64,000 bases of DNA from Patescibacteria group bacterium (lineage in GTDB: Bacteria; Patescibacteriota; Minisyncoccia; Phycocordibacterales; Zambryskibacteraceae), in the NCBI GenBank assembly GCA_004322205.1, contig SCSN01000016.1, positions 27,118-91,117 on the forward strand. The letters run 5' to 3'. The position numbers and the translations under genes are program-made. Each line of letters opens with the position of its first letter. Position 1 is the first letter of the stretch. Of this stretch, positions 3,427 through 22,238 are shown piece by piece. The notes below the pieces were generated by a model. It did no database searches and was not told where the DNA came from. It was given only the letters and a program-made list of their open reading frames with translations.

Positions 3427-3735
3427 ATGGAAAATGACGACATTGAAGCGGTCGTCCAAGCCGCAAAAAATATACGACTCAAGTACCGGAAAGGCACGCT
3501 CAACCCGCTTTCTTTGCTTCCTGAATCGAAAGCCAAATTGAAAGCCGCGATCAAGGATCGCATCCGGCTATTGTCAGCCTCTTACATATCGCTCGCCGGC
3601 TTCGTCGATGATGACAATGTTCTTTTTGCGGAACGAAACCCCACATCAAAGAAAACCCGAAGAATTTACCTCAAAATAATCGAGGATATGGAAACGGCAC
3701 AAAAAGAACTGCGTTGTTTTCTTAAGAAGATTTGA
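3427..3735 (+). CDS. hypothetical protein (102 aa), 3' end overlaps the RT gene convergently
   Basis: It is an ORF only, with no recognisable domain. Confidence 0.25.
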   Translation: MENDDIEAVVQAAKNIRLKYRKGTLNPLSLLPESKAKLKAAIKDRIRLLSASYISLAGFVDDDNVLFAERNPTSKKTRRIYLKIIEDMETAQKELRCFLKKI

Positions 3736-4729
3736 TCGATTTTTCTTTGAGTATTTTCTGTCTCAACTTCCAGCTATTGCCGTGACTCATAAGACCGAGA
3801 TATGACTGCACCGTTTCTTCCTTTCCATCTTTCGCTTGTATATTCCTGAACATCCGTTTTTTGGTAGTCGTCCTTAAAACCCTGTGATCCGGAAAATGCA
3901 CCCAACCGAGAAAATCCACGCCCGATGCGACGGTCTGAATGAAAATCTTATCCGGATGCATGACGAGCTTGAGCTTGCTTCCCAAAAATTCCTGCATCGC
4001 CGGCAGAATGGTCTCAAGGTACACTTTGTCTGTCGAAAGGACGGCAAAGTCATCTGCATAACGCAGATAATATTTCGCCTTGAGTCGATGCTTCATAAAT
4101 TGGTCGAATTCATTCATGTATATGTTTACCAAAAGCTGGGACGTCAAATTGCCGAGCGGAAGTCCGACGCCTGCGGTTCTTGAATTAAAGCTCCGGACGA
4201 TGATCGACATGAGATCGAGGACATCTTGATCGGGAATATATTTAGCAGCTATATCCAAGAGAATTGCATGGTCGATGTTTGCGAAGAACTTTTTAATATC
4301 GCATTTGAGCACCCATACCGTCCGTATGTTGTTCTCGGATACCATGCCGATGAATTTTCTAAACCTGCGAAGAGCGCGGTGCGTGCCTTTCCCGTCTTGG
4401 CATGAATTCGAGTCGGGAATAAACGTCTTTGCGAAAAATGGCGACAGTTGCCTGTGCAATGCGTGATGCAAAAGCCGGTCCCGAACGTTGGCTTTGTGTA
4501 TATCGCGCGGTTTCGGATCGGCGATTTTGAAATGCTGATATGCCGAATGCGAATATTTTCTCGCGGCAAGCTCGCGGTGGAGCGCGATGATGTTCGTCAT
4601 CAAATCTCGCTCGAATTCCTGCACGTCTTTACGCGTTCGCTTGCCGCGGACGAATTCTTTCCACGCCTCGAGGAGATTTTCGAGCGAGATGATATTATTA
4701 TATGTATGATGAAATCTAATTTTGGGCAT
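3722..4729 (-). CDS. diversity-generating retroelement (DGR) reverse transcriptase
   Basis: RT motifs 1-7 are present. Close colinear similarity to the Bordetella phage bRT as recalled is seen in DSNSCQDGKGTH, VLKCDIKKFFANIDHAILL, GLPLGNLTSQLL (the DGR-type SQ motif), RYADDFAVL (YxDD) and LHP.K...GVDFLGW. The start is set at MPKIRF (4729). The longer ORF to 4834 only adds a translation of the (TTGG)n repeat. Confidence 0.8.
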   Translation of the reverse strand: MPKIRFHHTYNNIISLENLLEAWKEFVRGKRTRKDVQEFERDLMTNIIALHRELAARKYSHSAYQHFKIADPKPRDIHKANVRDRLLHHALHRQLSPFFAKTFIPDSNSCQDGKGTHRALRRFRKFIGMVSENNIRTVWVLKCDIKKFFANIDHAILLDIAAKYIPDQDVLDLMSIIVRSFNSRTAGVGLPLGNLTSQLLVNIYMNEFDQFMKHRLKAKYYLRYADDFAVLSTDKVYLETILPAMQEFLGSKLKLVMHPDKIFIQTVASGVDFLGWVHFPDHRVLRTTTKKRMFRNIQAKDGKEETVQSYLGLMSHGNSWKLRQKILKEKSIKSS

Positions 4730-4730
4730 A

Positions 4731-5150
4731 ATGGTGGTAACCAACCAACCAACCAACCAACCAACCAACCAACCAACCAATAAGATTTTACCGGTTTTAG
4801 GTAAAGTCAAGGAGTCGTACCTTTTGTGGTACAAATTTTATCTGGATTTACCAAAGACGCATCGTCATTCTCTTGGTCAGCGCATCGACACTTTATTTGT
4901 CGAAGTGATAGAGGCGATATCGGCCGCAAGTTTTCTCTCGCCTGCGGAGAAGCATCCGTATGTTCGTCTCGCGATCAAAAAAGCGGACACTCTCCGCGTA
5001 CTTCTTTTGGTGCTTTGGGAAACGAAATCTTTGGACGATAAAAAATACATCGCCCTTTCGGTAAAGCTGGACGAAGCCGGCAAAATGCTCGGCGGATGGA
5101 ACGGACAGCTCGCAAAACAAAACTCTCCAGCGAAAGCCGGAGAGAAATGA
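4731..5150 (+). CDS. avd: DGR accessory variability determinant (Avd; four-helix-bundle protein)
   Basis: It has a conserved four-helix-bundle/Avd-like core (KESYLLWYKFYLDLPKTHRHSLGQRIDTLFVEV...). The C-terminus (GKMLGGWNGQLAKQN) resembles the bAvd C-terminus as recalled. The N-terminus as drawn (ATG 4731) includes the CCAA repeat, and the real start is uncertain. Confidence 0.6.
   Translation: MVVTNQPTNQPTNQPTNKILPVLGKVKESYLLWYKFYLDLPKTHRHSLGQRIDTLFVEVIEAISAASFLSPAEKHPYVRLAIKKADTLRVLLLVLWETKSLDDKKYIALSVKLDEAGKMLGGWNGQLAKQNSPAKAGEK
4741..4780. repeat. tetranucleotide microsatellite (CCAA)10 / (TTGG)10
   Basis: There are ten perfect tandem CCAA units. They lie 12 nt upstream of the RT start on the minus strand and inside the 5' coding region of the plus-strand avd ORF (NQPTNQPTNQPT). 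Confidence 0.95.
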
Positions 5151-5156
5151 AGAGAG

Positions 5157-5282
5157 TTGCGACACGGCGAACGCGAACCCGTTGTCACGATTCCACCTGT
5201 TGTCAGGCCTGTCGTTGTACGCGTTGAGCCAGCGACCATCGTCGTTACGGTTCGCGTTCAGCAAGTTCGGATCGCCGTCGGA
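5157..5282 (-). repeat. DGR template repeat (TR)
   Basis: This 126 bp aligns with 5629-5754 at 111/126 identity. All 15 mismatches fall at positions that are T on the given strand, which is A on the minus (RNA-sense) strand. Confidence 0.85.
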
Positions 5283-5502
5283 TTGCGCGAAGCATCTTCC
5301 ATATCACCGCCCCTCGAATACTCTCAGGGTTGAATCGAATCCGGCATAGTAATGCCTTAATGCCTCGCGCCAAGTATCTTCTTTTTTATTGAAGTTTCTG
5401 CATGCACCACTCTATCCGAAACCGTAGCCGCGGATACTCCCGATGCATGGATACTGGGGTCGGTAGCGGAAAGCCTTGACCGTCCGCATATTCACCTACT
5501 GC

Positions 5503-5545
5503 CACGAATATTATATATGAAATTTATTTTTATGAAAAAATTTAG
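5503..5545 (-). promoter_or_regulatory. candidate sigma70-like promoter reading toward the TR (minus strand)
   Basis: The minus-strand sequence is ttcata-N17-taatat / tataat (the TATAAT-like box is around 5510-5515), lying between the target-gene terminator and the TR. Confidence 0.25.
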
Positions 5546-5572
5546 CCCTGCTCCGACGGATCGGAACAGGGC
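5533..5572 (-). terminator. rho-independent terminator of the DGR target gene
   Basis: The minus-strand hairpin gccctgttccgatccgtcggagcagggc is followed by a T-run (taaatttttt). Confidence 0.6.
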
Positions 5573-5589
5573 TAAGGGCTAAGCTCAAA

Positions 5590-5603
5590 GGGACTGAAGT
5601 CCC
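5590..5603 (-). other. short GC hairpin (gggac-ttca-gtccc) just 3' of the VR; candidate DGR homing hairpin
   Basis: It is a perfect 5-bp stem with a 4-nt loop 25 nt downstream of the VR 3' end. This is analogous in position to the hairpin that follows the VR in Bordetella phage. Confidence 0.35.
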
Positions 5604-5610
5604 AAGAGTC

Positions 5611-6249
5611 TTAGGATTGAGAACTGACTTGCGACACGGCGAACGCGAACCCGTTGTCACGATTCCACCTGCGGCCAGGCCTGACGATGAACGCGTCGAG
5701 CCAGCGACCACCGTCGCTACGGTCCGCGCCCAGCAAGCGCGGATCGCCGCCGGAGTCGTTGATGGGTTCGTGCATTGCGACGATCCACCAGAGGAGACCC
5801 ATGGCTTCGATCTCCTCATCCGTGAACTTCTCACGGATGAGGCAGGCCAGTTCGGCGTTCGGCTTGGACAGCTTGCGCTTGTCGGCTTCGGTGCGGATCT
5901 TCTTCGTGATCCGGTCGTTGTCCTCGAAGAGCATGCCCTTGAGAACGGCGACTTCGGTCGTCACGCCATTGGTCGGCTTGAAGTCCGGCGAACGGAGCAC
6001 CTGCTTGGCGTAGTCTCCGACGCGGAAACCGTTGCCTTCCAGACGCTTGATCCAGTCCTCGCCGGTCGTGCCGTCGCTGGTGACGCTGAAGTAGATGACG
6101 CCGTCTTCCTCGCGCCACGAACGGATCGGTTCGGAAACCGAGAGTTCGTCGCGGAGAAAACGGAGCGCCATGTCGTGGCCACCGAGCTTCTTGACGATGG
6201 CGTTGAGTTGGCCGGCGGTAAGACCGGCGGATGCGAATTCTGTGCTCAT
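5611..6249 (-). CDS. DGR variable (target) protein, C-terminal C-type-lectin-like VR region
   Basis: The 3' terminal 126 bp of the ORF is the VR. The C-terminus RWLDAFIVRPGRRWNRDNGFAFAVSQ has the pattern typical of DGR variable proteins. No obvious signal peptide is present. Confidence 0.7.
   Translation of the reverse strand: MSTEFASAGLTAGQLNAIVKKLGGHDMALRFLRDELSVSEPIRSWREEDGVIYFSVTSDGTTGEDWIKRLEGNGFRVGDYAKQVLRSPDFKPTNGVTTEVAVLKGMLFEDNDRITKKIRTEADKRKLSKPNAELACLIREKFTDEEIEAMGLLWWIVAMHEPINDSGGDPRLLGADRSDGGRWLDAFIVRPGRRWNRDNGFAFAVSQVSSQS
5629..5754 (-). repeat. DGR variable repeat (VR)
   Basis: It is the counterpart of the TR, with substitutions only at TR-adenine positions. At the amino-acid level AAC (Asn) codons in the TR correspond to G/D/S/I/R in the VR. 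Confidence 0.85.
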
Positions 6250-6399
6250 GATTTTATCTCCTGGGCTAATTTGCCCGTTTTCGTTTTCCTCTAATCCGAG
6301 GAGGAACCATGGCCTGTGTGGTCATAGCGAGGAATGGCCTAGTTTTAAGCCACTTTTCGCTATGACCAATCGCAAGTCTTATCAAAGAACTATACCTAC

Positions 6400-7760
6400 T
6401 ATCATACACCTAAACGCCATATTTGTCAATAGTCCCCCGAGGAAATAGGGTTGCCAAATAAAGGCCCAGTTAAGCAAAATTGCTTACGGGTTGCGTGACA
6501 GCTTGGTTGCCGACCGACAATCAAAAACCTATGAACAACAACGTATTAACGTATGCCGAATACCAAAAAAGACTGAAAGAATTGAAAACGCCCGAGGATA
6601 TCGCCTCGTTCGCCCAAGAGCTTATCGCTCCCGCCCTTGCCGGAAATATGACTCCGGAAAAGAAAGAGGATAAGCCGGATGAGCCGAAAGACGAAGCTCC
6701 GGAGGAACCTCGCAAGAAGCGCATCCTTCTGCCGAAGGAAAAACTCTATGCGATCCGAAAGCTTCAACTTACAGACGCGAACGTGATCAGTCCGTGGTAC
6801 GACGTGGTGGGCAACGATACCGATGCGATGGTAATCAGCCTCTACGCCAAAGGTCTGACGACGCGCGACATCTCAAGCTACCTTAAGAATATGCACGGGA
6901 TCGAAATCGCGCAACCGTCGATATCCGCAATCACCGACAAAGTGTTTCCGTTGGTGAAAGAATGGCAGATGCGATCTCTTTCGTCATGCTATCCGGTCGT
7001 ATACCTCGACGGTTTGCATTTCAAAGTCCGCGACGCCGGCAAGATCGTGTCCAAGGTCGCCTACATCGTGCTTGGCATAAATCAGTACGGACAAAAAGAG
7101 GTGCTTGGCATCTGGGTGAGCGAATCCGAGGGATCGAAGTTCTGGATGCATGTGCTCAATGACATGAAGAATCGAGGCGTCGATGACATACTCATCGCTT
7201 GTGTGGACGGTCTGAAAGGTTTTCCGGAAGCGATCAAAGCCATGTATCCTCACGTCGACGTGCAGGTGTGCATCGCGCATCAGATCAGACACACGATCAT
7301 GTTCATTCCGCACAAGGACAAGAAGCAATTCTGCGACGAGCTCAAATCCATTTACACGGCCGCGAATGAGGAAGCTGGCATGGACTCCCTCAAAGACATG
7401 ATGGAACGCTGGCCGCAGTACCGCTCGTATCTCAAGAGCTGGGAAACTCGATGGTCTGACTTGATACCGTTCTTCGGCTATCCGCAACCGATCCGAAAAA
7501 TGGTCTACACCACGAACGCCATCGAAAATCTCAATAGGCAGTTCCGCAAGGTGACCAAGACGACGACTATCTTCCCTCACGATGACGCGCTTATAAAGCT
7601 GTTATGGCTGGCGCAGGCCGACATCACGCAGGGATGGGTGCTTACCACAAGAAATTGGGGAGAAGTTATGGCTCAACTCAATATTCTGTTTCCGGATCGC
7701 GTACACTTCTAATCGCCGATCCAGTCGACATTAATTAACTAACCGGCCGGTCCAGAACTC
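6400..7760 (+). mobile_element. IS256-family insertion sequence (boundaries not resolved)
   Basis: The transposase gene is present, but I could not find convincing terminal inverted repeats by eye. The coordinates are only a bracket. Confidence 0.4.
6531..7712 (+). CDS. IS256-family (Mutator-type) transposase
   Basis: There is full-length similarity to IS256/mutator transposases (...CYPVVYLDGLHFKVRD...LIACVDGLKGFPEAI...CIAHQIRH...). The start is trimmed to MNNNVLTYAEY. Confidence 0.85.
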   Translation: MNNNVLTYAEYQKRLKELKTPEDIASFAQELIAPALAGNMTPEKKEDKPDEPKDEAPEEPRKKRILLPKEKLYAIRKLQLTDANVISPWYDVVGNDTDAMVISLYAKGLTTRDISSYLKNMHGIEIAQPSISAITDKVFPLVKEWQMRSLSSCYPVVYLDGLHFKVRDAGKIVSKVAYIVLGINQYGQKEVLGIWVSESEGSKFWMHVLNDMKNRGVDDILIACVDGLKGFPEAIKAMYPHVDVQVCIAHQIRHTIMFIPHKDKKQFCDELKSIYTAANEEAGMDSLKDMMERWPQYRSYLKSWETRWSDLIPFFGYPQPIRKMVYTTNAIENLNRQFRKVTKTTTIFPHDDALIKLLWLAQADITQGWVLTTRNWGEVMAQLNILFPDRVHF

Positions 7761-12767: not shown

Positions 12768-12797
12768 ACCGGGGGCGCAAAATTCGTAGTATAGTTA
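12765..12797 (+). repeat. 33-bp direct repeat X, copy 1 (gcgcaaaattcgtagtatagttaaaccacaaaa), starting in the last bases of tRNA-Arg
   Basis: It is identical to 14485-14517. Confidence 0.85.
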
Positions 12798-12813
12798 AAC
12801 CACAAAAGAACCC

Positions 12814-12844
12814 AAAGAAAAACATCGGCTCGAACCATATTTTA
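12814..12844 (+). repeat. recombinase-gene micro-remnant: aaagaaaaac fused to a reverse-complement copy of the 27-bp repeat (aaaaacatcggctcgaaccatatttta)
   Basis: It matches the reverse complement of 20605-20631 and 22026-22052 (one mismatch each) and also 13468-13493. Confidence 0.6.
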
Positions 12845-12889
12845 ATTTTGGGGGAAGAAAATTTTTTAATCCTTCTCTGATGATTACAA

Positions 12890-13339
12890 ATGACTTTACC
12901 TACACATGTATTAGCTGGACTAATAATTGGCAAAATAACAGGAGATTTTTCTACGGCAATCGCCGGTTCTCTGGTAATGGATTTAGACCATACTATTTCG
13001 TATTTTCGCCACGGAATTTTATTTAAACCTCGCCAATTATTTAAGGCAATATCTGACGAAGCAGACCCGTGGGGTGACCAAAGAAATTTTTTACACAGCA
13101 TTTTTAGTTGGGTTGTCATTTCTGTTGCGCTTTTAACAATTAATTTTAATTTTGGTTTAGTATTTTCCATAGCTTATTTTTTTCACTTAGTTTTTGACGC
13201 TTTGGATGGGGCTGATTTTTATCCATTTTTCCCTTTCAAAAAATTTGCGATAAAAGGGTTTGTAGAATATTACTCAAAACAAGAAATTATTTTTGACATT
13301 TTATTGATTCTCGTTTTTGTCGCTCTTTTTGTCATTTGA
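12890..13339 (+). CDS. YdjM-like membrane-bound metal-dependent hydrolase family protein
   Basis: MTLPTHVLAGLIIGKI...HLVFDALD gives a multi-TM protein with His/Asp motifs typical of PF04307. The assignment is moderate. Confidence 0.45.
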   Translation: MTLPTHVLAGLIIGKITGDFSTAIAGSLVMDLDHTISYFRHGILFKPRQLFKAISDEADPWGDQRNFLHSIFSWVVISVALLTINFNFGLVFSIAYFFHLVFDALDGADFYPFFPFKKFAIKGFVEYYSKQEIIFDILLILVFVALFVI

Positions 13340-13401
13340 TTCAGCTCCAATTTTTTGATAAAATCCGCTTGGTATTCGCTTCGCGAATTCTTGGATTAAA
13401 T

Positions 13402-13493
13402 GCCGCCAAAGAAAAACTTGAAATCGTTGCTTCGCTCTGCGAAGCCCAAACTGCCAAAGAACCTGAAAACAAATCGGCTCGAACCATATTTTG
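13402..13493 (+). pseudogene. internally deleted fragment of a large serine recombinase gene (codons about 30-55 joined to the 3'-end repeat)
   Basis: It translates AAKEKLEIVASLCEAQTAKEP, matching residues 31-53 of the intact recombinase at 21978. It is followed by aaacaaatcggctcgaaccatattttg, the reverse complement of the 27-bp repeat. Confidence 0.5.
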
Positions 13494-13634
13494 TAAGGGC
13501 AAAAGAAATTTTTTCATAAGGATTTTTGAAAACAGAAACTCGAAAGGGTTTCTGTTTTCAGTTGATTTTTATTGTTATTTCTGCTAGTTTGTCTATGGAA
13601 CCCCGACAACTAAACACAGAGAGGAGAGTTCTTT

Positions 13635-14270
13635 ATGACACAAGAAGCACTGATGACAGAGCTTCTTTCCATGCGAAAGCGAGCGGAACGAACGGCGCAG
13701 AGCATCGACCAAATCTCACGCAACCTTTCTTCCGAGCGTCAGACGCTCCGGCAGGTGGTCAAGGAATACGGAGCGAAGCGCGTCGAGCTCCTCAAGCAGG
13801 AACTTCAGGCGCGAGGGATGACCTGGTGCACCTGCTGCTCCGGGGCGATTCCCGAAAGCGAGTCTGAGCTTCTGTTCGTCGAAGGAGCTGAGGAACGCTC
13901 CGGTGGCTACGAGAATTCATGTTGGGGTTGCGAGCGGTTCTCGAAACTCCATCGAGTGTGCTCGGGCTGCCGCGACAAAGCACAAGATCGACATGGTACA
14001 CAGGGCCGCTACGACAACTTCAACAAGATTCAGGCATACTTCTACGCCTCTCGCGTAGAGAAGCGCGAGGGCGGCTACTACGCCCGCAAGTTCGGCAACT
14101 GGGTCAAGCTCGACGACGAGAACTGTAAGCTCGATGAGCCGTCGGGCCAACTAGTAGAGAGACTTGCGGAGGAGTGGAATCTCCCGCCACGAATCGAGGT
14201 CGAGCCGAAGTGGCCGAGCTCCGAGGGGAAGCTCGTCGTCCACGAGCGGATGCTGGCTGAAGCGGGTTAG
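13635..14270 (+). CDS. hypothetical Cys-rich protein (possible zinc-ribbon) in a GC-rich segment
   Basis: It is a 211-aa ORF with WCTCCSG...CWGCERF...CSGC. The segment 13.56-15.25 kb is noticeably more GC-rich than its surroundings. Confidence 0.4.
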   Translation: MTQEALMTELLSMRKRAERTAQSIDQISRNLSSERQTLRQVVKEYGAKRVELLKQELQARGMTWCTCCSGAIPESESELLFVEGAEERSGGYENSCWGCERFSKLHRVCSGCRDKAQDRHGTQGRYDNFNKIQAYFYASRVEKREGGYYARKFGNWVKLDDENCKLDEPSGQLVERLAEEWNLPPRIEVEPKWPSSEGKLVVHERMLAEAG

Positions 14271-14365
14271 CCATACGTCCCTAACAGAGGGTGTTCTGCC
14301 AAGTGCCGGACACCCTCATTTCTTTTTACAAAGAACATTTGTGCGTGCTTCGCACGCTAGAATTT

Positions 14366-14426
14366 GTATTCCGCCAAAGAAAAACTTAAAATTGTCAGTG
14401 TGCGCGGCGGAGCCGCTCATTTTTGG
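14366..14426 (+). repeat. about 60-bp direct repeat R1, copy 1 (gtattccgccaaagaaaaacttaaaattgtcagtgtgcgcggcggagccgc...)
   Basis: It is near-identical to 19037-19096. It covers codons about 31-38 of a recombinase (AKEKLKIV) followed by a non-recombinase sequence. Confidence 0.8.
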
Positions 14427-14484
14427 TGGGGGCTTCCTCGCCGCCTGCGGCGGCGAAATGCGTTCGGACTAATCCAAGAATACT

Positions 14485-14517
14485 GCGCAAAATTCGTAGT
14501 ATAGTTAAACCACAAAA
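14485..14517 (+). repeat. 33-bp direct repeat X, copy 2, followed by a perfect 12-bp palindrome (aaaacctgccgg/ccggcaggtttt)
   Basis: It is identical to 12765-12797, and the palindrome lies at 14513-14536. Confidence 0.85.
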
Positions 14518-15252
14518 CCTGCCGGCCGGCAGGTTTTGTGGTTTTGAGTTGACAGACTGACCAGAAATGTCAGAATAAAAAAAGAACATTCCACCGGGAG
14601 GTGTTGTGAAAAAGCTGATCTGGGGAACGGTTCTTTTTGTTTCCTCGCATGGGCAGAGCCGGTCCAGGCCCAAAAACTGATCAACAGGCACATACCCCAC
14701 TTCCTCACCAAAATAGCTACGGGAGTTGCGGCAACGGAAGGACTGAAGCTTTTTGGAGTCCCCCGCCCCAAGGCGGCGGTTCTCGGCGTGGTCGGCACGT
14801 GGGCCGCCTCGGTGGTGGTCTCCTGCATCCGCTGGTGCGGCAGTCGCGGCTATTCTCTGGTACCGGCGGCTTGCGACAAGGGAGCTGACCTGTTCGCCAC
14901 GACTCTGGTCGCAGTGCCGCTCAATGTCCGGTTGGGCCGGATAGGAAGGTTCGAGGTTATGGTCGGAGGAACTGGTCTTTACTTCCTCACCTTCGATCGG
15001 TGCGCCAGGCCCTGATCTTTCCTCGCCAAGCAAAAAGCACCCCGCACTCACGTGCGGGGTTTGCTCTTTTATGAGACATTGATCTCGTCTAGCGAATCTC
15101 GTACGTCACCGAAACCACAATGACTACCTCTTGGCTTCCCGACTGAAGCTCGGGTGTTCCCCCGCCCCCAAGGCCCAAGGGCACCGCCCGTTCCAGATAC
15201 TGAATCGGCGGGAAACCAGAATCGGACTCATTCAAAATTACTGCGTAAAAAC

Positions 15253-15591
15253 TTAGCGTGAAGGGTCCGGAAGTGATACCGGGCGCGTCTTGAGACTCTC
15301 GAGAATAGCTGCTCTTTCTTCAAAACGGGAAAGAGTTTGTCGGAGCAGATTCTCATCGATTGCCCCTTGCACTGCATCAGAGCCTTGCTTGATGACAAAA
15401 ACCTCTCCCTTACTCACCTTCACAAACAAGAGCAGGTTAAAAGCGACAACAAGAATAGTCATCAAAAGAGCAGAAAGGAGAACCAATCGCCAGTCGCGCG
15501 CCGCGCGCGTGGAAAGAGTTGGGAAATCTCGCCCCTGCAACTGAAACAAACTGATAATTTTCGAAAACGATAGACGCAGTTTCATAGTCAC
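15253..15591 (-). CDS. pilus-assembly-associated membrane protein (PilP-position ORF)
   Basis: It is a single-TM protein at the end of the pilMNO operon. It is called on context only. Confidence 0.3.
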   Translation of the reverse strand: MTMKLRLSFSKIISLFQLQGRDFPTLSTRAARDWRLVLLSALLMTILVVAFNLLLFVKVSKGEVFVIKQGSDAVQGAIDENLLRQTLSRFEERAAILESLKTRPVSLPDPSR

Positions 15592-16157
15592 TTGAGCTTG
15601 AGCACTGTAAAATCATAATACCCCTTCCAAAGCCTCCTGCCGCGAGCGCTATCGCTATCAAACAGCGGCTCCTTACCATCTTCCAGGGAGAAAATAACTT
15701 GATCCACCTCAACTCGATACGGGAGATGCTCGAGAACAGAGAGCAGTTCGGCGACCTCCGCCCAACTGCCAACCATCTCCACTTTAAGGCGCAAAAGTTC
15801 TTTGAAGTCGTCTTTGCTTTTTGTATCCGGCTCCACTGTCACCGCCCCGATCACCAGCGAGAGATCGTACTGGCGCCCAATGTTCTCCAGAAACTCGATG
15901 AAATGAGGTACACCATCGCGCGCCACAAAATATGAGTCGAGAGTAGCAATATTTGTGCTGTGCTGTCCCAAAGCGCGCTTTGCCGCCCGCAGGAACTCGT
16001 CATTTTTAATGTCCCGTTCCGCAGCATTCGCTAGAGCGTGGGCTTTTTCATTTACCTTTTTCACAATGTAGAAGAGAGTGCCGTAGGCGCCCCAAGCCAG
16101 CGCCGCCAAGACAGCGGTCAGAGCAAGGAGTTTTCTGATGTTTGAAAGGTGGTGCAT
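15588..16157 (-). CDS. pilO: type IV pilus assembly protein PilO-like
   Basis: It has an N-terminal TM region and a periplasmic domain and sits in the operon position after PilN. The start is trimmed to MHHLSNI so it abuts the PilN stop. Confidence 0.45.
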   Translation of the reverse strand: MHHLSNIRKLLALTAVLAALAWGAYGTLFYIVKKVNEKAHALANAAERDIKNDEFLRAAKRALGQHSTNIATLDSYFVARDGVPHFIEFLENIGRQYDLSLVIGAVTVEPDTKSKDDFKELLRLKVEMVGSWAEVAELLSVLEHLPYRVEVDQVIFSLEDGKEPLFDSDSARGRRLWKGYYDFTVLKLK

Positions 16158-16158
16158 G

Positions 16159-16689
16159 CTAGCGAACAGTAATCTGAATGGAGAAGCTGGCGTTCCGGTC
16201 TTTGGCAAAATCGGAGACTGGAATATTGACACGCCCAAACGATGGTTCGCTTTCAAGCAATTTCACAAACTGCGCCAGACTCTCCCGGTTTGCGGCAATC
16301 CCGGAGAACCTAAGCTCGTTGCCTCCCGCTTTTCGCTGGTACTCGAGAGAGCTCAAGCGGACAGATGAAATTCTCCTAGCAAGCAGACGTTCAAAGAGCG
16401 CCTCTGCCGACTGTGGGCTGGTGGTGGCAAGAGTCCGGATCTTGAGATTGGCGCTGGTGAGCTTGGTGTTGAGCTCATTGGCCTCCCGAAGAATGGTTGA
16501 ATGCCGCACTGCATCAATTCTGCCGGACACTTCCTTATAGCGAGAGTCCGACACTAAATACGACGGAACAAGAAAAATAAACGCCAAGGCGGCGGTCAGA
16601 GCAAGAAAGAGACAGACAAGAATCCCCACTCGAATGCGGTACTCCGCGAAGATGTGCTTTTTCTCTGCGTCAGGAAGGAGGTTAAACAT
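16159..16689 (-). CDS. pilN: type IV pilus assembly protein PilN
   Basis: The start MFNLLPDAEKK is the conserved PilN N-terminus, and there is a single TM region. Confidence 0.6.
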   Translation of the reverse strand: MFNLLPDAEKKHIFAEYRIRVGILVCLFLALTAALAFIFLVPSYLVSDSRYKEVSGRIDAVRHSTILREANELNTKLTSANLKIRTLATTSPQSAEALFERLLARRISSVRLSSLEYQRKAGGNELRFSGIAANRESLAQFVKLLESEPSFGRVNIPVSDFAKDRNASFSIQITVR

Positions 16690-16701
16690 GGTGGTGCGTG
16701 G

Positions 16702-17691
16702 TCAGAGGTGTGAGCGATACGAAAGAGCGGCGCCGATTACCGGGGCATATTCAAAAGCCTCTTCGCGGGAAAGGTCGGGTACAAATTGCTCAAGAGAAAA
16801 GACATTCTCCCAGACATCGGCAACCTTAAGCGGCAAGCCCAGAGGCGTCAGGGCAGCAGCCAGAGCGGGGTGATCGGCAAATTTCCCGGAGAGAATGAGC
16901 GCTTGCGGCTGCCCTCTCCGGTCACTCTCATCCTCATTTTCATTGTGCCAGTAGGAAATAACTTTCCTTGCCTCGCTTACGAGCTCTCCCGCCCACGGAA
17001 ATTCTCCGCTCTCCAAAGCGTTGGCCGAAAGTGGAATCGTGGCGGAAAAATGAACAGCGTTCTTGCGGACAACATATACCCCGACCTTCCGGGAAAAGAT
17101 GTGGATGACAGCATAGACAGCCGGATCATCGTGAGCCACCACTGCTTTGACTACCGCTTGCGACTCAATCTCAAAATGAAAGGGCGAGAGCTCAGCCGAG
17201 CGATAGACATCGAGGAACGAGCGGACAACGTGCTCGGGCACTACAGAGACCGCTACCTCAAATGGCTCCCGCCCCTCGCCCCCATCGCGAAGAACAGCAA
17301 AATCAAAAACCGCCTCCGAAAGTGAGAGGGGGACATTTTCCTCAATCGTAAACTCCACCGCGGTGCGGATGTCTCGTTCTCCGGCGCGGGAGATTTTAGT
17401 TTGAAAAAGATAGGCTTTCTCGTCCGGCAGAACGCAGCGAATATAGTGAAGGTCAAAGCGCTTGCGAAGCGAAGTCAGGGCGGTTGTGAGCTCTTGAGGT
17501 TTTTTAATTTCGCCTGAGACCAAGGTGCCTTCGGGTAGGGTCTCTTCGCCGTATCGTTTGAGAACTATATGGTCACCGACGTGCTGAAATTCAACACACC
17601 TTGCATGAGTATCTTCTAGAACTAGTCCTGGAGAGGGCATTTCCAAAAACTTCGGTGTCGGAAAAAAGTCAAAAAAGCTGCGGCTGGGCAT
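16702..17691 (-). CDS. pilM: type IV pilus assembly ATPase-fold protein PilM
   Basis: It has an actin-like fold with a PilM-like length and motifs and leads the pilMNO arrangement. Confidence 0.7.
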   Translation of the reverse strand: MPSRSFFDFFPTPKFLEMPSPGLVLEDTHARCVEFQHVGDHIVLKRYGEETLPEGTLVSGEIKKPQELTTALTSLRKRFDLHYIRCVLPDEKAYLFQTKISRAGERDIRTAVEFTIEENVPLSLSEAVFDFAVLRDGGEGREPFEVAVSVVPEHVVRSFLDVYRSAELSPFHFEIESQAVVKAVVAHDDPAVYAVIHIFSRKVGVYVVRKNAVHFSATIPLSANALESGEFPWAGELVSEARKVISYWHNENEDESDRRGQPQALILSGKFADHPALAAALTPLGLPLKVADVWENVFSLEQFVPDLSREEAFEYAPVIGAALSYRSHL

Positions 17692-17719
17692 AAGGGAAAT
17701 TATATCATTTCAGCGCGCG

Positions 17720-18046
17720 CTAACGAATTAGCATTCCAGAAGGAATTGCACTGCCGACTTCAAGAAGAGAGAGTGATTGTTTGGAGGCGGCGGCCAGAAT
17801 CATCGCTTCACTTATCTCTCCCAAAATCTGGCGCGGTTCAAGATTCGCGGCAAAGGCACAACGCTTGCCAACTAGTACAAAAGGGTCAAGAAAAAAGGGT
17901 GCGATGCCAGCAATAACCTGCCGCGGCCGCTCCTCGCCCAAGTCGACGGAGAGCTTGAGAAGTTTCTCCGACCCTTCCAGGCGCTCCGCCGAGAGAATTT
18001 CTCCAACCCGGATTTCTATTTTTTTGAAATCATCGTGGGTTACCAT
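17720..18046 (-). CDS. tRNA-binding (EMAP/CsaA-like) domain protein
   Basis: KIEIRVGEILSAERLEGSEKLLKLSVDLGEERPRQVIAGIA...NLEPRQILGEISEAMIL is the OB-fold tRNA-binding domain pattern. Confidence 0.7.
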   Translation of the reverse strand: MVTHDDFKKIEIRVGEILSAERLEGSEKLLKLSVDLGEERPRQVIAGIAPFFLDPFVLVGKRCAFAANLEPRQILGEISEAMILAAASKQSLSLLEVGSAIPSGMLIR

Positions 18047-18428
18047 TTCTGTTCTTGCGGTCCAAAAAACTGCGCAGAATTAGGGCGGCTGCCGAAGCGT
18101 CGAGAGATTCTTGTTTGCCCTGTATGCGCTCGGCTTCGATGCTCGTAAAAAACTCCGGCTCATAGTAAACCGGCAGACTGATTTTTCTTTCCAGTTCATT
18201 TTTAAACTTCTCAATCTCGGCAGTAATGGGGTTTTCTCCGCCCGCAAGTGTGCGTGACTCACCAAGAACAATTGCCCCGACACCTTCCTTTACACAAAGG
18301 GCAGCAATGTCATGAGTGAGGTGCGCTGGATTAGATAGAGTGGTTTTGGGAAAGGCAAGCTTTCCCTCTTCGTCAGAGACGGCAATGCCAACTCTTTTGC
18401 TGCCGTAATCAATTCCCAAAAATTTCAC
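18030..18428 (-). CDS. ruvX: Holliday-junction resolvase-like / pre-16S rRNA nuclease YqgF (RuvX)
   Basis: MKFLGIDYGSKRVGIAVSDEEGKLAFP is the YqgF N-terminus. Confidence 0.8.
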   Translation of the reverse strand: MKFLGIDYGSKRVGIAVSDEEGKLAFPKTTLSNPAHLTHDIAALCVKEGVGAIVLGESRTLAGGENPITAEIEKFKNELERKISLPVYYEPEFFTSIEAERIQGKQESLDASAAALILRSFLDRKNRNGNPR

Positions 18429-18475
18429 TCCTCTTAATATATCACCGTTTGCCTCCGCTTGGCCGCTCGTCTATT

Positions 18476-18727
18476 ATGAAGCCTATGGAGTCTTTCCTGC
18501 CGCAGATCGCTTTAGTGAATTCTTACCTTGAAGCTCACCCCGCCCTCACCATTTTTCTTGTCGTCTGGTCGCTTTTCTGGAAAGCCCAGGCTCTTTGGCG
18601 TTCGGCGCAGTTGTCTCACCGCTGGTGGTTTGTTATTATCCTGGTCTTAAACACCCTTGGCCTTCTGGAAATCTACTATCTCTACTTTGTCTCTCGCAAG
18701 TATTCAGTCCAGGTTGAAGAAGTCTAG
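18476..18727 (+). CDS. small hypothetical membrane protein
   Basis: It is an ORF with two predicted TM helices. Confidence 0.3.
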   Translation: MKPMESFLPQIALVNSYLEAHPALTIFLVVWSLFWKAQALWRSAQLSHRWWFVIILVLNTLGLLEIYYLYFVSRKYSVQVEEV

Positions 18728-18816
18728 GTGGGGTGGCAGAGTGGTTGAATGCACCGGTCTTGAAAACCGGAGTGTCCGAAAGGGCACCGTGAGTTCGAAT
18801 CTCACCCCCACCGCCA
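18727..18816 (+). tRNA. tRNA-Ser (anticodon TGA), CCA encoded
   Basis: Acceptor GGTGGGG/CCCCACC, anticodon stem CCGGT/ACCGG, loop CTTGAAA, long variable arm and a 3' GCCA fit. Confidence 0.85.
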
Positions 18817-18840
18817 GAAAGGATTTTGCAAATGCGAGTT

Positions 18841-18864
18841 GCCCGCCTCGCTTCGCTCGGCGGC
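18841..18864 (+). repeat. 23-bp GC-rich motif gccgcc-TCGCT-TCGCT-cggcggc (copy 1 of 3)
   Basis: It also occurs at 20537-20559, and in reverse complement with two 1-nt indels at 35963-35985. Confidence 0.7.
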
Positions 18865-18947
18865 TAATTTGTATGGGATTTTTGGCGAAAAAGAAATGCT
18901 TTTATCAATAAGGGCAAAAGAAATTTTTAATCATTTTTTGAAATCAT

Positions 18948-19060
18948 ATGAGATACGTAATTTACACAAGAAAATCGAGTGAAAGTGAGGAACGACAGAT
19001 TTTGAGTATTGAGGCGCAGCTCGCAGAGCTGCAAGAGTATTCCGCCAAAGAAAAACTTAA
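18948..19060 (+). pseudogene. N-terminal fragment (36 codons) of a large serine recombinase, then diverges into repeat R1
   Basis: MRYVIYTRKSSESEERQILSIEAQLAELQEYSAKEKLKIV matches the resolvase-domain N-terminus of the intact gene at 21978 (MRYVIYARKSTEDDDRQVLSIEAQLVELHEFAAKEKLEIV). After codon 36 it continues into the sequence shared with 14366-14426. Confidence 0.55.
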
Positions 19061-19215
19061 AATTGTCAGTGTGCGCGGCGGAGCCGCACATTTTTGCTCG
19101 CCTCACCCGAGCCGCGCGGAGCGCGGCGAGGGAATGCAGTTCGAGCTATTTCTAAAATACACCGCCAGTTAGGAAATCAGCTTTGAAATTTGACTTTGTG
19201 CTAAACTAGTAGTTA

Positions 19216-19674
19216 ATGACGGTAATAGCAGAACTTCTAGTCGCGCTTCTTGGGCTAGCGGGTTTTCTGCTCGCCAATTACATCCGCGCCACTAAGCGAA
19301 GACAGACACCGCTTGTTTGTCCAATCCACGGAAGCTGCGAAGTTGTTGTCCGAAGCCAATTCTCCGCTCTGCTTGGCATCCCGCTTGAATACTGGGGGAT
19401 GGCGTACTACTCTCTCATCACTCTCGCCTACTTTCTTTTTGCTCTCTCCCCTACGGCCGCCCCGGCGATTGTTTCTTACTTTATTTTGAGCCTCACTGCC
19501 ACCGCCTTTCTCTTCTCTCTCTACCTTACCGCCATTCAGGCAGTCGTTCTCAAACACTGGTGCACTTGGTGTCTCTGCTCGGCAGCGCTCTGCACTGTGA
19601 TTTTTTCACTGGTAATCTACGTCTCCGATCTTTCGCTCGCCGCTCTCACTGGCTCGTGGCTCTCACTCTTCTAA
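19216..19674 (+). CDS. vitamin K epoxide reductase (VKOR) family protein
   Basis: It is a multi-TM protein with the CTWC active-site motif (KHWCTWCL) and an additional Cys pair. Confidence 0.7.
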   Translation: MTVIAELLVALLGLAGFLLANYIRATKRRQTPLVCPIHGSCEVVVRSQFSALLGIPLEYWGMAYYSLITLAYFLFALSPTAAPAIVSYFILSLTATAFLFSLYLTAIQAVVLKHWCTWCLCSAALCTVIFSLVIYVSDLSLAALTGSWLSLF

Positions 19675-19723
19675 CTTCTGCGTGATACAATATTTACGAT
19701 GGAAGCGGGCAACTAATACAATG

Positions 19724-20185
19724 CGCAAACAAAATCCTCTTCACTGGCAAGCCCACGAATACGAGGAGCGGGTTCGCGGTGCCGACTGGTTTTGGGCAGT
19801 CGGCATTCTGACGGTGGCTATTTCCGTGACTGCCGTTATTCTCGGAAACATTCTCTTTGCTCTCGTCATTCTCCTCAGCGGCTTCTCACTCTCGCTCTAC
19901 GCCGCGCGCAAGCCGCGGCTCGTTGATATTGTTCTAAGCGACAAGGGGGTGCGTATTGACAACTACTTCTACCCTTACCACGCCCTCGAATCATTCTGGG
20001 TGGATGAACACAGCTCCTCGCCCAAGGCTCTTATCAAATCACAGAAACTTTTCATGCCCTACATCATCGTGCCGCTTGTTGAGGTGAACCCAGAGTGGGT
20101 GCGTCACTACCTTTCCCGGCATCTGCCGGAAATCTTCCATAGCGAATCTGTCTTTCATAAGCTGATGGATCATTTGGGATTCTAA
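19724..20185 (+). CDS. hypothetical membrane protein
   Basis: It is an ORF with two TM helices. The start is trimmed to MRKQNPLHW. Confidence 0.3.
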   Translation, partial: RKQNPLHWQAHEYEERVRGADWFWAVGILTVAISVTAVILGNILFALVILLSGFSLSLYAARKPRLVDIVLSDKGVRIDNYFYPYHALESFWVDEHSSSPKALIKSQKLFMPYIIVPLVEVNPEWVRHYLSRHLPEIFHSESVFHKLMDHLGF

Positions 20186-20319
20186 AGGCTTGAAGGTTCA
20201 ACCTTTAAGCTGTAAGCTCTAGTCCTCACCCCTCGTCGTTCAACTGGCCCGCCTACGGCAAAAAATATGAGTTCAGTTTGTTTTCAAGGGCAGGTAGGAC
20301 ATGCGAGATTGTTCCCGAT

Positions 20320-21978
20320 TTACCAAAGAACGAAGTGATTGGTTGTAAATCGCAATCCCGTTAAAAGTTCGCCCCTGTAGTTCAATGGATAGAATGCGAG
20401 ATTGCGGATCTCGTGATTCAGGTTCGAATCCTGACGGGGGCGCAGAATTAAGGACAAACTTTTTTGGGACGGAGCTTGTAATCGGGGTTCGATTCCTCGC
20501 GGGGGGGACACTTTAGAAAAGCGCAAGTCAGAGGAAGCCGCCTCGCTTCGCTCGGCGGCCATTTCGTATTGAATTTTGGGGGCAAAAACGAATTGGCGGT
20601 TTCGCAAAATATGGTTCGCGCCGATGTTTTTAAGAAATGTTGTCATTTTGGGATAATTATTTTCGGAAAGCAATTTTTCGGCTTGATTTAAGGATAAAAC
20701 GAACTCACGAGCCGGTTCGAGCCACGACAGGCCTTTCTGCTCAAAATCAACAACCTTCTCCTGTAAACGGACTTTTTCGGCCACCAATTTTTCTTTTTTG
20801 GCGGCGTATTCTGCTTGTGTAAGCGCGTTGTCTAAATATACATCAAGCAGTTTTTGGAGCTTCATTTCGTTTTGGGTTAATTTGCTTTTCAAAATATCAA
20901 CTCCAGCTTGAAATTCTTGTTTCGCGTTCTCCTGTTCTTTTGCTAACGCCGCCAAAACTTTTTCAGTGTCGTGGCTCGACAAAGAAACTTTTTGAAGAAA
21001 GGTTTTGATTTGCGCGGCTAACTCGTTTTCTTGGATATAGTGCTTTTCTTGGCATACGCCTTTCTTTTTCGTACATCGGTAGTAGGTATAAATGCCACCG
21101 TTGCCTTTGGCATATTGCGCGGTTATGGAGCAATCGCATGAGGCGCATTTCATCAAGCCGAGAAAAGCAAAGTGGTGTTTCTTTACTTCCTGAACCCTGC
21201 CGCGCTTCGCCATCACTTCTTGGCACAAATCAAAAAGTTTCTTTGAGATTAACGGCTCGTGTGTTCCCTCAAATATCTCACTTCGGTATCGCATGAGTCC
21301 GAAGTAGAATGGATTTTGTAGAAGGTGCCGAACATTGCTTACGGAAATTTCTTTGCCGAGATTTCCGCGCAAGCCGTTTTCCTTGCACCAATTTGCGAGA
21401 GAAAGAAATGTGTAGCTTCCGGTTGAATACATCTCAAAAAGTTTTCTGACCTTAGGTGCTTTTTCGGTATCAACATCAATACCTCGGGTCTTAGGGTTAT
21501 TCAAGTAGCCAATCGGAGCCCAACTTGGCCACACTCCATTTCGGATTTTTTGCCGCAAACCCCTTTTTACATTCTCTCGCAGATTGTCCACATAGTATTT
21601 TGATTGTCCAAAAGCAATATTCAGCATAAAAAGTCCTTGCGGTGTCGGTTCACACCAAAAAGTCGGAAATTTGAGGGAACGAATCAAGCCGCGGTCTATC
21701 ATGTGGATTATCTTTCCTCCGTCCACGGAATTTCTCGCAAGACGATCCGGGTGCCATGATAGTATTCCGTCAGCTTTTCCTTTTTCCAAAAATGACAACA
21801 TTTCTGCGAATTTCATTCGCCCGGGTTCTTTTGCGGTTTTCGCCTCTTGGAAAGAGGCGACAATTTCAAGTTTTTCTTTGGCGGCAAATTCATGAAGCTC
21901 AACGAGTTGAGCTTCAATAGAAAGTACTTGCCTGTCGTCATCTTCCGTTGATTTGCGAGCGTAGATTACATATCGCAT
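20320..21978 (-). CDS. large serine recombinase (integrase/transposase-like); true 3' end uncertain because the ORF reads through the repeat and the tRNA genes
   Basis: It has the resolvase catalytic domain (YARKST...DRQ...), a recombinase domain and a zinc-ribbon (CASCDCS...YYRC) followed by a coiled-coil. The last about 95 codons translate the tRNA-Arg and partial-tRNA region (…PRGIEPR…). Confidence 0.8.
   Translation of the reverse strand: MRYVIYARKSTEDDDRQVLSIEAQLVELHEFAAKEKLEIVASFQEAKTAKEPGRMKFAEMLSFLEKGKADGILSWHPDRLARNSVDGGKIIHMIDRGLIRSLKFPTFWCEPTPQGLFMLNIAFGQSKYYVDNLRENVKRGLRQKIRNGVWPSWAPIGYLNNPKTRGIDVDTEKAPKVRKLFEMYSTGSYTFLSLANWCKENGLRGNLGKEISVSNVRHLLQNPFYFGLMRYRSEIFEGTHEPLISKKLFDLCQEVMAKRGRVQEVKKHHFAFLGLMKCASCDCSITAQYAKGNGGIYTYYRCTKKKGVCQEKHYIQENELAAQIKTFLQKVSLSSHDTEKVLAALAKEQENAKQEFQAGVDILKSKLTQNEMKLQKLLDVYLDNALTQAEYAAKKEKLVAEKVRLQEKVVDFEQKGLSWLEPAREFVLSLNQAEKLLSENNYPKMTTFLKNIGANHILRNRQFVFAPKIQYEMAAERSEAASSDLRFSKVSPPRGIEPRLQAPSQKSLSLILRPRQDSNLNHEIRNLAFYPLNYRGELLTGLRFTTNHFVLW
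20371..20442 (+). tRNA. tRNA-Arg (anticodon reads GCG, unusual)
   Basis: Acceptor GCCCCTG/CGGGGGC, anticodon stem CGAGA/TCTCG and loop TTGCGGA fit. A GCG anticodon is atypical for bacteria, so it should be re-checked with a tRNA finder. Confidence 0.7.
20460..20512 (+). other. partial tRNA-like element (T-arm plus acceptor-like, no D-arm)
   Basis: gggacggagcttgtaatcggggttcgattcctcgcggggggg contains a GGTTCGATTCC T-loop but no complete cloverleaf. It is a possible att-site remnant. Confidence 0.3.
20537..20559 (+). repeat. 23-bp GC-rich motif copy 2
   Basis: gccgcctcgcttcgctcggcggc. Confidence 0.7.
20605..20631 (+). repeat. 27-bp direct repeat DR2 copy (caaaatatggttcgcgccgatgttttt), inside the 3' coding end of the recombinase
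   Basis: It is identical to 22026-22052. On the minus strand it encodes ...KNIGANHIL... Confidence 0.85.
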
Positions 21979-22025
21979 AGTTTTGTTGGATTAAATTGAT
22001 TAAAAATTTTTCCGTCCCCCAATAT

Positions 22026-22052
22026 CAAAATATGGTTCGCGCCGATGTTTTT
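22026..22052 (+). repeat. 27-bp direct repeat DR2 copy, 48 bp upstream of the recombinase start
   Basis: It is identical to 20605-20631. Confidence 0.85.
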
Positions 22053-22238
22053 CTCAGGGTTCTTTTGCGGTTTTTATCGGTGCGGCTCCGCCGGATTTCG
22101 GATTTTTCGCGGGGGGCTTTCCTCGCCGCCTGCGGCGGCGAAAACGGTTCGCACTATTTCAAGAATACTGGACACTTTAGGAAAACAAAAACATCCTATG
22201 TTCCCAAGAAACATAGGATGTTTTTGTTCGCAGAGAGG

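Follow-up and report, generated by a model that had tools for sequence, protein, structure and literature searches.

A Patescibacteria diversity-generating retroelement with a simple-sequence repeat at the avd/RT junction and a structured RNA 5' of its template repeat

In a 64-kb stretch of DNA from a Patescibacteria group bacterium (contig SCSN01000016.1, positions 27,118 to 91,117; hereafter the window, in whose coordinates all positions are given), the region 3722-6249 is almost certainly a complete, intact diversity-generating retroelement (DGR) of a Patescibacteria (candidate phyla radiation, CPR) clade. The preliminary description of this DNA had claimed a complete DGR with a reverse transcriptase (RT), the accessory protein Avd, a template repeat (TR) paired with a variable repeat (VR), and a target gene, and each diagnostic feature named there held up in our tests. 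The open reading frames (ORFs) lie where that description had placed them, with the RT at 3722-4729 (minus strand), the Avd ORF at 4731-5150 and the target gene at 5611-6249 (minus strand). The locus is a further member of an already known CPR DGR clade and its gene content is nothing unusual; as a DGR alone it would be a matter of routine annotation. Three clade-wide features matter more, namely a simple-sequence repeat (SSR) at the avd/RT junction, a structured RNA leader 5' of the TR and a motif array that follows the VR, all of them undescribed in the literature searched, as far as we found. In the most economical reading, the junction repeat is probably a functional slipped-strand on/off switch of the DGR.

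The TR (5157-5282, minus strand) and the VR (5629-5754, minus strand) align without gaps over 126 bp at an offset of 472 and differ at 15 positions. All 15 are T on the plus strand of the TR, i.e., adenine on the minus (RNA-sense) strand, as realignment and tabulation of the mismatches confirmed for an earlier claim of exactly such a pair. Of the 30 adenines in the TR, 29 occupy codon position 1 or 2; within a 126-nt TR, 15 mismatches would all hit the 30 adenines by chance with a probability of 1.5e-11. On the plus strand the changes from TR to VR comprise 10 T>C, 3 T>A and 2 T>G. They alter 12 codons in the frame of 5611-6249, always at codon position 1 or 2 and always non-synonymously, with the outcomes N>R/G/D/S/D/I/R, D>G/G/V/G and Y>F, which also bears out the alignment of TR Asn codons with diversified VR codons noted before. 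The TR is intergenic and non-coding and lies 428 nt from the RT start, and the VR lies within the 3' part of a coding gene. The VR had been taken for the literal last 126 bp of that gene; its position at the target C-terminus holds, but it spans codons 166-207 of 212 and stops 15 nt before the stop codon. No third TR-like copy was found elsewhere in the 64-kb window.

The RT (335 aa) carries the motif LPLGNLTSQ, the catalytic YADD and a Pfam RVT_1 domain (E 2e-23). Its closest solved relative in a PDB search is 8ub7_A (E 7.9e-45, residues 8-320), which is 100% identical to the product of brt of Bordetella phage BPP-1 (bRT). Together with the pairing of LGNLTSQ with IGSLTSQ of bRT and of YADD with YMDD, this match upholds the earlier assignment to DGR-type enzymes that align with the bRT motifs. 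Group II intron and retron RTs come next after bRT, at approximately 1e-18, and an affinity to them, which the preliminary description had named as the alternative, is thereby excluded. A broader version of this alternative takes the 126-bp pair for an ordinary duplication of part of a gene, with an unrelated RT of the group II intron or retron type encoded nearby by coincidence. The best NCBIfam match of the RT is indeed a group II RT/maturase model, although at 132.8 bits it is far under the cut-off of 300, in a library that appears to hold no DGR-RT model, and no group II or retron family scores above its cut-off. With mismatches restricted to one base of one copy, with bRT ahead of the next solved RTs by an E-value margin of 26 orders of magnitude and with the four-part layout recurring in more than 100 loci, this alternative is scarcely credible; the adenine-only mismatches and the recurrence in relatives rule out a chance duplication as the origin of the TR/VR pair.

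Avd is encoded at 4731-5150 on the plus strand, opposite to RT, TR and target, with a conserved four-helix core from 4785. An Avd-like ORF between RT and TR had been predicted correctly, but its orientation had been overlooked, as had the AACC repeat between avd and RT and the RNA structure around the TR: rather than being co-oriented with TR and RT, avd stands head to head with the RT gene, with their two ATGs 1 nt apart (RT ATG 4729-4727, avd ATG 4731). In profile searches the ORF matched the NCBIfam model NF033474 'DGR protein Avd' (DivGenRetAVD) with an E-value of 9e-15, profile positions 1-102 of 104 being covered by Avd residues 20-123, and Pfam bAvd (PF22296) with an E-value of 3e-9 over nearly the whole profile. 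PF22296 is present in 120 of the 120 Avd homologues listed. Two observations count against the assignment, as both model scores are under the curated cut-offs (54.9 versus 80 bits and 37.6 versus 40 bits, respectively), and no Avd chain in the PDB was matched by either the single sequence or the family profile.

RT scans recovered 160 related loci with 57-91% identity from Patescibacteria genomes and metagenomes, almost all of them labelled CPR. The exact RT protein, with either of its two possible starts, and the exact target protein matched no contig in the index searched. Avd and RT genes occur together in 146 loci, and in every one of these avd is directly upstream of and divergent from the RT gene; in 105 related loci a TR/VR pair occupies the same place, with 70-100% of the mismatches on TR adenines. 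Two relatives (L124 and L126) that are 99% identical over 6 kb show 17 VR differences, all at TR adenines, and at the family level we observed variation confined to TR-adenine codons. The family-wide layout and the adenine-codon variation support the DGR reading and place the locus in the known clade. In a separate comparison, two loci identical over 5.5 kb (L115:3465-3526 and L061:200-261) have 12 differences, all within the TR, at each of which L061 has an adenine and L115 another base; these stem either from TR and VR reads joined into a chimera during assembly or from mutagenesis of the template itself.

The target gene encodes a 212-aa protein with the VR at its C-terminus, for which AlphaFold with a deep homologue alignment gave a high-confidence model of a C-type-lectin-like fold. 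A model that used only the 83-93% identical homologues reached a pLDDT (predicted local distance difference test) of 41 and was discarded in favor of the deeper alignment. Sequence searches of Pfam (E-values up to 10) and the PDB gave nothing meaningful, leaving the target with no Pfam domain, and no signal peptide was seen. The protein is 100% identical to EPN83_03160 from a Patescibacteria metagenome-assembled genome and has more than 2000 homologues of 83-93% identity spread over many CPR classes. In an alignment of 117 homologues, sequence entropy peaks only at residues 167-199, on the TR-adenine codons.

Several further observations concern the target. Its non-variable part is 83-93% identical across CPR classes and the linked RTs go down to approximately 60%; the gene (5600-6250) has a G+C content of approximately 61% versus approximately 46% in its surroundings. 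The high G+C content and high identity suggest that the target module is either strongly constrained or often transferred. Otherwise different target families (WIN, L022, L049, L055 and others) share an N-terminal helical motif of approximately 35 aa, ..GQ(L/M)(N/E)A(V/I)..KLGG.E....FLRGEL.V, without a signal peptide. At residues 154-155 the window protein has one extra Trp (LLWWIV) compared with LWY or LWI in all 19 of the 19 close homologues compared. A promoter-like site for the target gene, known as a consensus match only (TTGACA-17-TATGAT, 11 of 12 matches), lies at 6401-6429 on the minus strand, and a hairpin resembling an intrinsic terminator (5542-5575, minus strand; 15-bp stem followed by a T-run) would close the target transcript. 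An IS256-family transposase gene at 6480-7712 on the plus strand (NF033543, E 6e-97) adjoins the target promoter region.

At the avd/RT junction, 9 nt upstream of the RT ATG, we found a perfect SSR, (AACC)10.5, at 4739-4780, which lies within the avd ORF and is read there as (NQPT)n. Tandem Repeats Finder scored it with 100% matches, and it is the sole such repeat in the 64 kb. A junction SSR is present in 129 of the 145 loci with a divergent avd-RT pair, in the form of 116 G/C runs of at least 8 nt and 13 other repeats; outside the junction there were 11 SSRs in 1.14 Mb, and of G/C runs of at least 8 nt there were 4. In the RT sense, approximately 120 loci carry a poly-G tract of 7-14, and the other units are (GGTT), (ATTG), (TTCG), (TGGC), (TGAC), (GT) and (GA), in addition to a heptanucleotide in some loci, (CAATCAG)n in the avd sense, which we verified in the DNA. 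Unit lengths are thus 1, 2, 4 or 7 nt and never 3 or 6. Avd N-terminal extensions in gene-caller proteins translate the tract as PPPP, NQPTNQPT, SQPASQPA, THTHTH or NQQSAIS repeats, and an out-of-frame tract results in truncated Avd calls from the same 90% clusters.

Tract length is polymorphic among relatives on an otherwise identical background. Two pairs of loci from different samples (L166/L168 and L167/L169) are identical over 1.5-2 kb save for three CCAG units, L076 and L136 differ over 3262 nt by a single G of the tract, a 2-nt tract indel and one substitution are all that separates L041 from L106 across 5013 nt, and L012 and L089 are 10 nt of (GT)n apart. The relatives of the window at 87-89% nucleotide identity have (AACC)3.5 and (AACC)4.5 as against 10.5. 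We conclude that the junction tract is hypermutable and under selection to remain a repeat. A G-quadruplex or pairing role for the tract was considered and rejected, since ATTG, TTCG and GT units are unable to play it and no complementary tract exists elsewhere. One locus (L047:12316) has a second long tract, (AACC)24, 6 kb from its own avd-RT junction, which may belong to another DGR copy.

Two mechanisms, which are not mutually exclusive, fit the reading of this tract as a switch. Gain or loss of a 4-nt unit would bring the upstream ATG into the reading frame of the Avd core or take it out of that frame, and in the poly-G relatives the tract length would alter the spacing of a leaderless RT promoter; either change would toggle mutagenic retrohoming stochastically and reversibly. 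For the first mechanism, the stretch from the tract to the Avd core (4785) contains no ATG, GTG or TTG in the window, and the ATG at 4731 is in frame with the core only through the tract, so that the locus appears from its sequence to be currently in the 'ON' frame. When the first 18 RT codons of 107 unique RTs are read in antisense, the codon-aligned frame stays open in 79% of the loci and contains an ATG in 70%, versus 48% and 19% in control blocks, while the other two antisense frames are open in 11% and 2% versus 45% and 34% in controls. Both unique loci that have no repeat, namely L006 and L005 (the latter being the same contig as L083), have their avd in frame with this upstream ATG. The His codon on the RT strand was CAT, which reads ATG in antisense, in all 13 sequences matched by the pattern (p = 0.02), a number too small to lean on. 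For the second mechanism, the poly-G tract is followed in 26 unique loci by TAnnnT, exactly 7 nt and the RT ATG, with the T conserved in 25/26, the A in 24/26 and the final T in 26/26. This geometry is that of a putative -10 box with a leaderless mRNA.

A number of points weigh against the switch. Poly-C loci are in the ON frame in 23-33% of cases, i.e., at chance, which speaks against a strict frame switch, and 45% of the loci have a TTG or ATG at Avd codon 2 as a possible start past the tract. Longer tracts go with shorter adjacent spacers (r = -0.23, p = 0.01), a negative correlation more in keeping with a role in spacing than with one in the reading frame. The window does not have the TAnnnT-7-ATG geometry, and the frame and spacing mechanisms are therefore indistinguishable here. 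Homopolymer lengths in assemblies can be off by one, and frame logic and promoter geometry are what underlie the idea of an expression switch. The chance-level ON-frame fraction and the possible starts past the tract equally suit a repeat that has no switching role and is a slippage-prone linker or an unstructured C/A-rich leader filling a spacer of roughly fixed length. Such a filler is also suggested by the narrow distribution of the summed length of tract and spacer with its negative correlation, and by the C/A-rich composition of the avd-sense units, which would be unstructured. However, a filler has no need of a perfect repeat, let alone of at least 10 different units at the same spot with a more than 1000-fold enrichment over the flanks; nor does it explain why unit sizes shun multiples of three, why tract length is the sole difference between otherwise identical contigs, or why the upstream antisense frame pattern points to translation across the tract. 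We regard the filler as unlikely, if still a serious competitor, and retain the slipped-strand switch as the preferred reading of the junction repeat.

The second clade-wide feature lies on the RNA. On the minus strand, the target promoter-like site, the target gene and the terminator-like hairpin (5575-5542) are followed by a promoter-like site for the TR RNA at 5538-5510 (TTTTCA-17-TATAAT), the -10 hexamer of which, at 5515-5510, has its T, A and final T invariant in 99 loci. With its own -10 box and a terminator-like end, the TR RNA of approximately 390 nt is a putative separate unit. Directly 5' of the TR, at 5285-5449 on the minus strand, we identified a structured leader of six helices that is supported by covariation. 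RNAalifold on 75 loci gave 37 pairs, 34 of them with compensatory changes, and 94.4% of the alignment cells are paired versus 37-50% when the partners are slid. The covariation score of 0.786 compares with at most 0.215 in the controls, and none of 500 shuffles reached it. A 12-bp helix pairs 5359-5370 with 5285-5296, its 3' strand ending 3 nt before the TR. A covariance model, R1, built from the 98-nt TR-proximal part of the leader, has a single match in the window (5279-5375, 91 bits) and one match per locus in 68 of 100 held-out loci, with strand (that of the RT) and distance the same throughout. Rfam recovered only tRNAs in the window, with nothing credible around the TR and no family for the leader. 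The leader is a candidate RT/Avd-binding domain and cDNA stop.

At the other end of the TR, 13 nt past it, a stem-loop at 5113-5144 on the minus strand consists of a 9-bp stem (CUCUCCGGC/GCUGGAGAG) with a UUUC tetraloop (5123-5144) followed by UUUUGUUUUG (5113-5122), and the region gives a terminator-like match. A CUCUCC...GGAGAG-UUUUGUUU element follows the TR in nearly all related loci, with varying upper stems. Its conservation is based on folds of individual sequences, RNAalifold having recovered no more than 4 pairs, as the upper stem is variable in length. The C-terminal tail of Avd (..KQNSPAKAGEK) at 5113-5150 is coded opposite the stem-loop and U-run, such that the same DNA serves a protein tail and an RNA structure. 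Just past the TR in 207 of 278 DGRs there is an Avd-binding stem-loop of approximately 9 bp with a tetraloop, and at the TR 5' edge there is a stop duplex in which an upstream strand pairs with a downstream one (Handa et al., doi 10.1101/2023.10.23.563531). The stem-loop of the window fits this Avd-binding element and is a candidate for it, for the terminator of the TR RNA, or for both. The 12-bp helix is placed like the stop duplex, yet its partner is upstream rather than downstream, and a structured domain 5' of the template would thus be a permutation of the phage RNA. The survey by Handa et al. (doi 10.1101/2023.10.23.563531) spanned only 40 nt upstream of the TR and would have missed an upstream helix partner of the window type.

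The third feature distinguishes the flanks of the two repeats. After the VR (window 5541-5628, minus strand), CTT[ATG]G motifs follow each other with 7-8-nt spacing, with a mean of 3.1 per 80 nt in 100 unique loci versus 0.23 elsewhere in these loci; no such array was found after the TR. The VR-proximal flank (5579-5628, minus strand) contains short hairpin units of the GGAC/GTCC type with a folding z-score of -5.3, among them GGGAC-UUCA-GUCCC at 5590-5603. The mutual complementarity of the array units (GGAC/GTCC) makes several small hairpins possible, and no hairpin at a fixed position past the VR is conserved across the loci. The array may mark the VR as the recipient copy and is a candidate target-site marker. 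DGRs are expected to have an IMH element (for 'initiation of mutagenic homing') at the 3' end of the VR, an IMH* that differs from it in the TR and, past the VR, a GC-rich hairpin (Guo et al. 2011, PMC3240598). No IMH/IMH* mismatch pair is recognizable in the window, where TR and VR are identical over their last 43 nt and then diverge completely.

By analogy with the Bordetella phage system, on which the order of events, the priming site, the cDNA stop and the role of the VR flank are modelled, we propose the following cycle. A non-coding RNA of approximately 390 nt would be transcribed on the minus strand, driven by the conserved -10 box near 5510 and carrying in turn the structured leader (5285-5449), the TR (5282-5157) and the 9-bp tetraloop stem-loop with its U-run (5144-5113). 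The RT (3722-4729) and a pentamer-forming Avd (4731-5150, opposite strand) would bind this RNA and reverse-copy the TR into cDNA with misincorporation opposite adenines, and synthesis would halt at the 12-bp helix that abuts the TR 5' edge. The cDNA would then take the place of the homologous VR (5629-5754), thereby recoding as many as 18 codons for Asn, Asp and Tyr where the C-type-lectin-fold protein (5611-6249) has its ligand-binding tip.

Whether the cassette still runs through this cycle in its source genome bears on a further alternative, that of a fossil, i.e., a once-active DGR with recognizable parts whose target is no longer diversified there. Current activity in the source genome is a prediction, and an IS256-family transposase adjoins the cassette. 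The 3'-most 43 nt of the VR (5629-5671), identical to the TR, hold five adenines in codons 196, 198 and 199 (N196, D198 and N199), all hypervariable in the family; as approximately 68% of the upstream adenines are changed, the chance that these last five remain unchanged is approximately 0.3%. That five unchanged adenines sit in codons that are hypervariable family-wide is a point against an active DGR, and the unchanged end could be due to selection, a partial conversion tract or TR-VR recombination. On the other hand, every ORF is intact, the catalytic YADD is present and the repeat keeps avd in frame with the ATG at 4731. The promoter -10 box, leader RNA and stem-loop are likewise intact and score like those of relatives, all 15 VR changes are non-synonymous without a stop codon, as for a selected recent product, and VR turnover is ongoing between near-identical relatives. 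A fossil is therefore improbable, and we continue to regard the cassette as an intact DGR. Unrelated to it, the window contains dispersed direct and inverted repeat families of 47-121 nt among tRNA genes at 12797-22170.

Hypermutation that could not be silenced would erase useful variants at the rate at which it makes them. If the proposal is true, lineages would owe heritable, reversible ON and OFF states to slipped-strand switching of the helper gene or the RT, with which cells could diversify and then lock a variant in, and the metagenomic reads already available would allow a test in which tract length is set against VR diversity. The leader RNA and the VR-flank array provide concrete, mutable elements for the reconstitution of CPR DGRs, and allow the RNA-protein architecture to be compared with the single system solved so far. 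It is tempting to go further and speculate, as a possibility that we put at somewhat below an even chance, that this Patescibacteria clade, the largest of the cellular DGRs, combines phase-variable retrohoming through the junction SSR with an RNA that has a 5' binding and stop domain, both undescribed as far as we found.

SSR contingency loci are well known from the tetranucleotide repeats of Haemophilus influenzae lic1 and mod, the (TA)n tract that separates the divergent promoters of hifA and hifB, and the poly-G tracts of Neisseria and Campylobacter. The junction tracts resemble them as perfect mono-, di-, tetra- and heptanucleotide repeats at an ORF 5' end or in a promoter spacer, with units that are not a multiple of three and a copy number that is the sole difference between otherwise identical sequences, and, as in hif, the tract lies between divergent genes. 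In contrast to these loci, the genes under control would be a mutagenesis machine instead of a surface structure or a methyltransferase, and the hosts are uncultured groundwater Patescibacteria, in which the switch is a prediction from sequence. Our searches, whose coverage did not include Paul et al. 2017, such that a prior description is possible, found no literature linking DGRs with phase variation, SSRs, homopolymers or poly-G.

Among DGRs, the locus belongs with those of other CPR bacteria. According to Wu et al. (2018 NAR, PMC5758913), an architecture termed 'B3' accounts for 90% of CPR DGRs, and it appears to be exactly the arrangement of the window. DGR clade 2 is restricted to Patescibacteria, with targets that have neither transmembrane nor conserved domains (Roux et al. 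2021, PMC8144416). The window agrees with both accounts in host group, in gene content and in its small target without a recognizable domain, but differs in the SSR at the junction, the structured leader 5' of the TR and the motif array past the VR, of which we found no mention in Roux et al. (PMC8144416) or in Wu et al. (PMC5758913).

The DGR of BPP-1 (mtd-avd-TR-brt), the prototype of these elements, shares with the window the RT clade, the Avd helper and the adenine-specific transfer from TR to VR, as well as a C-type-lectin-fold protein that ends in the VR region, template codons rich in AAC, a tetraloop stem-loop of approximately 9 bp just 3' of the TR and a duplex abutting the TR 5' edge. 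In contrast to BPP-1, where the TR runs via a 140-nt spacer into brt, the TR RNA of the window looks separate, and its avd is inverted, between TR and RT and head to head with the latter. Nor is an IMH/IMH* mismatch pair recognizable in the window. The helix at its TR 5' edge has an upstream instead of a downstream partner, and most of the conserved structure of its RNA sits 5' of the TR. Finally, its host is cellular rather than a phage, and the junction between avd and the RT gene carries an SSR.

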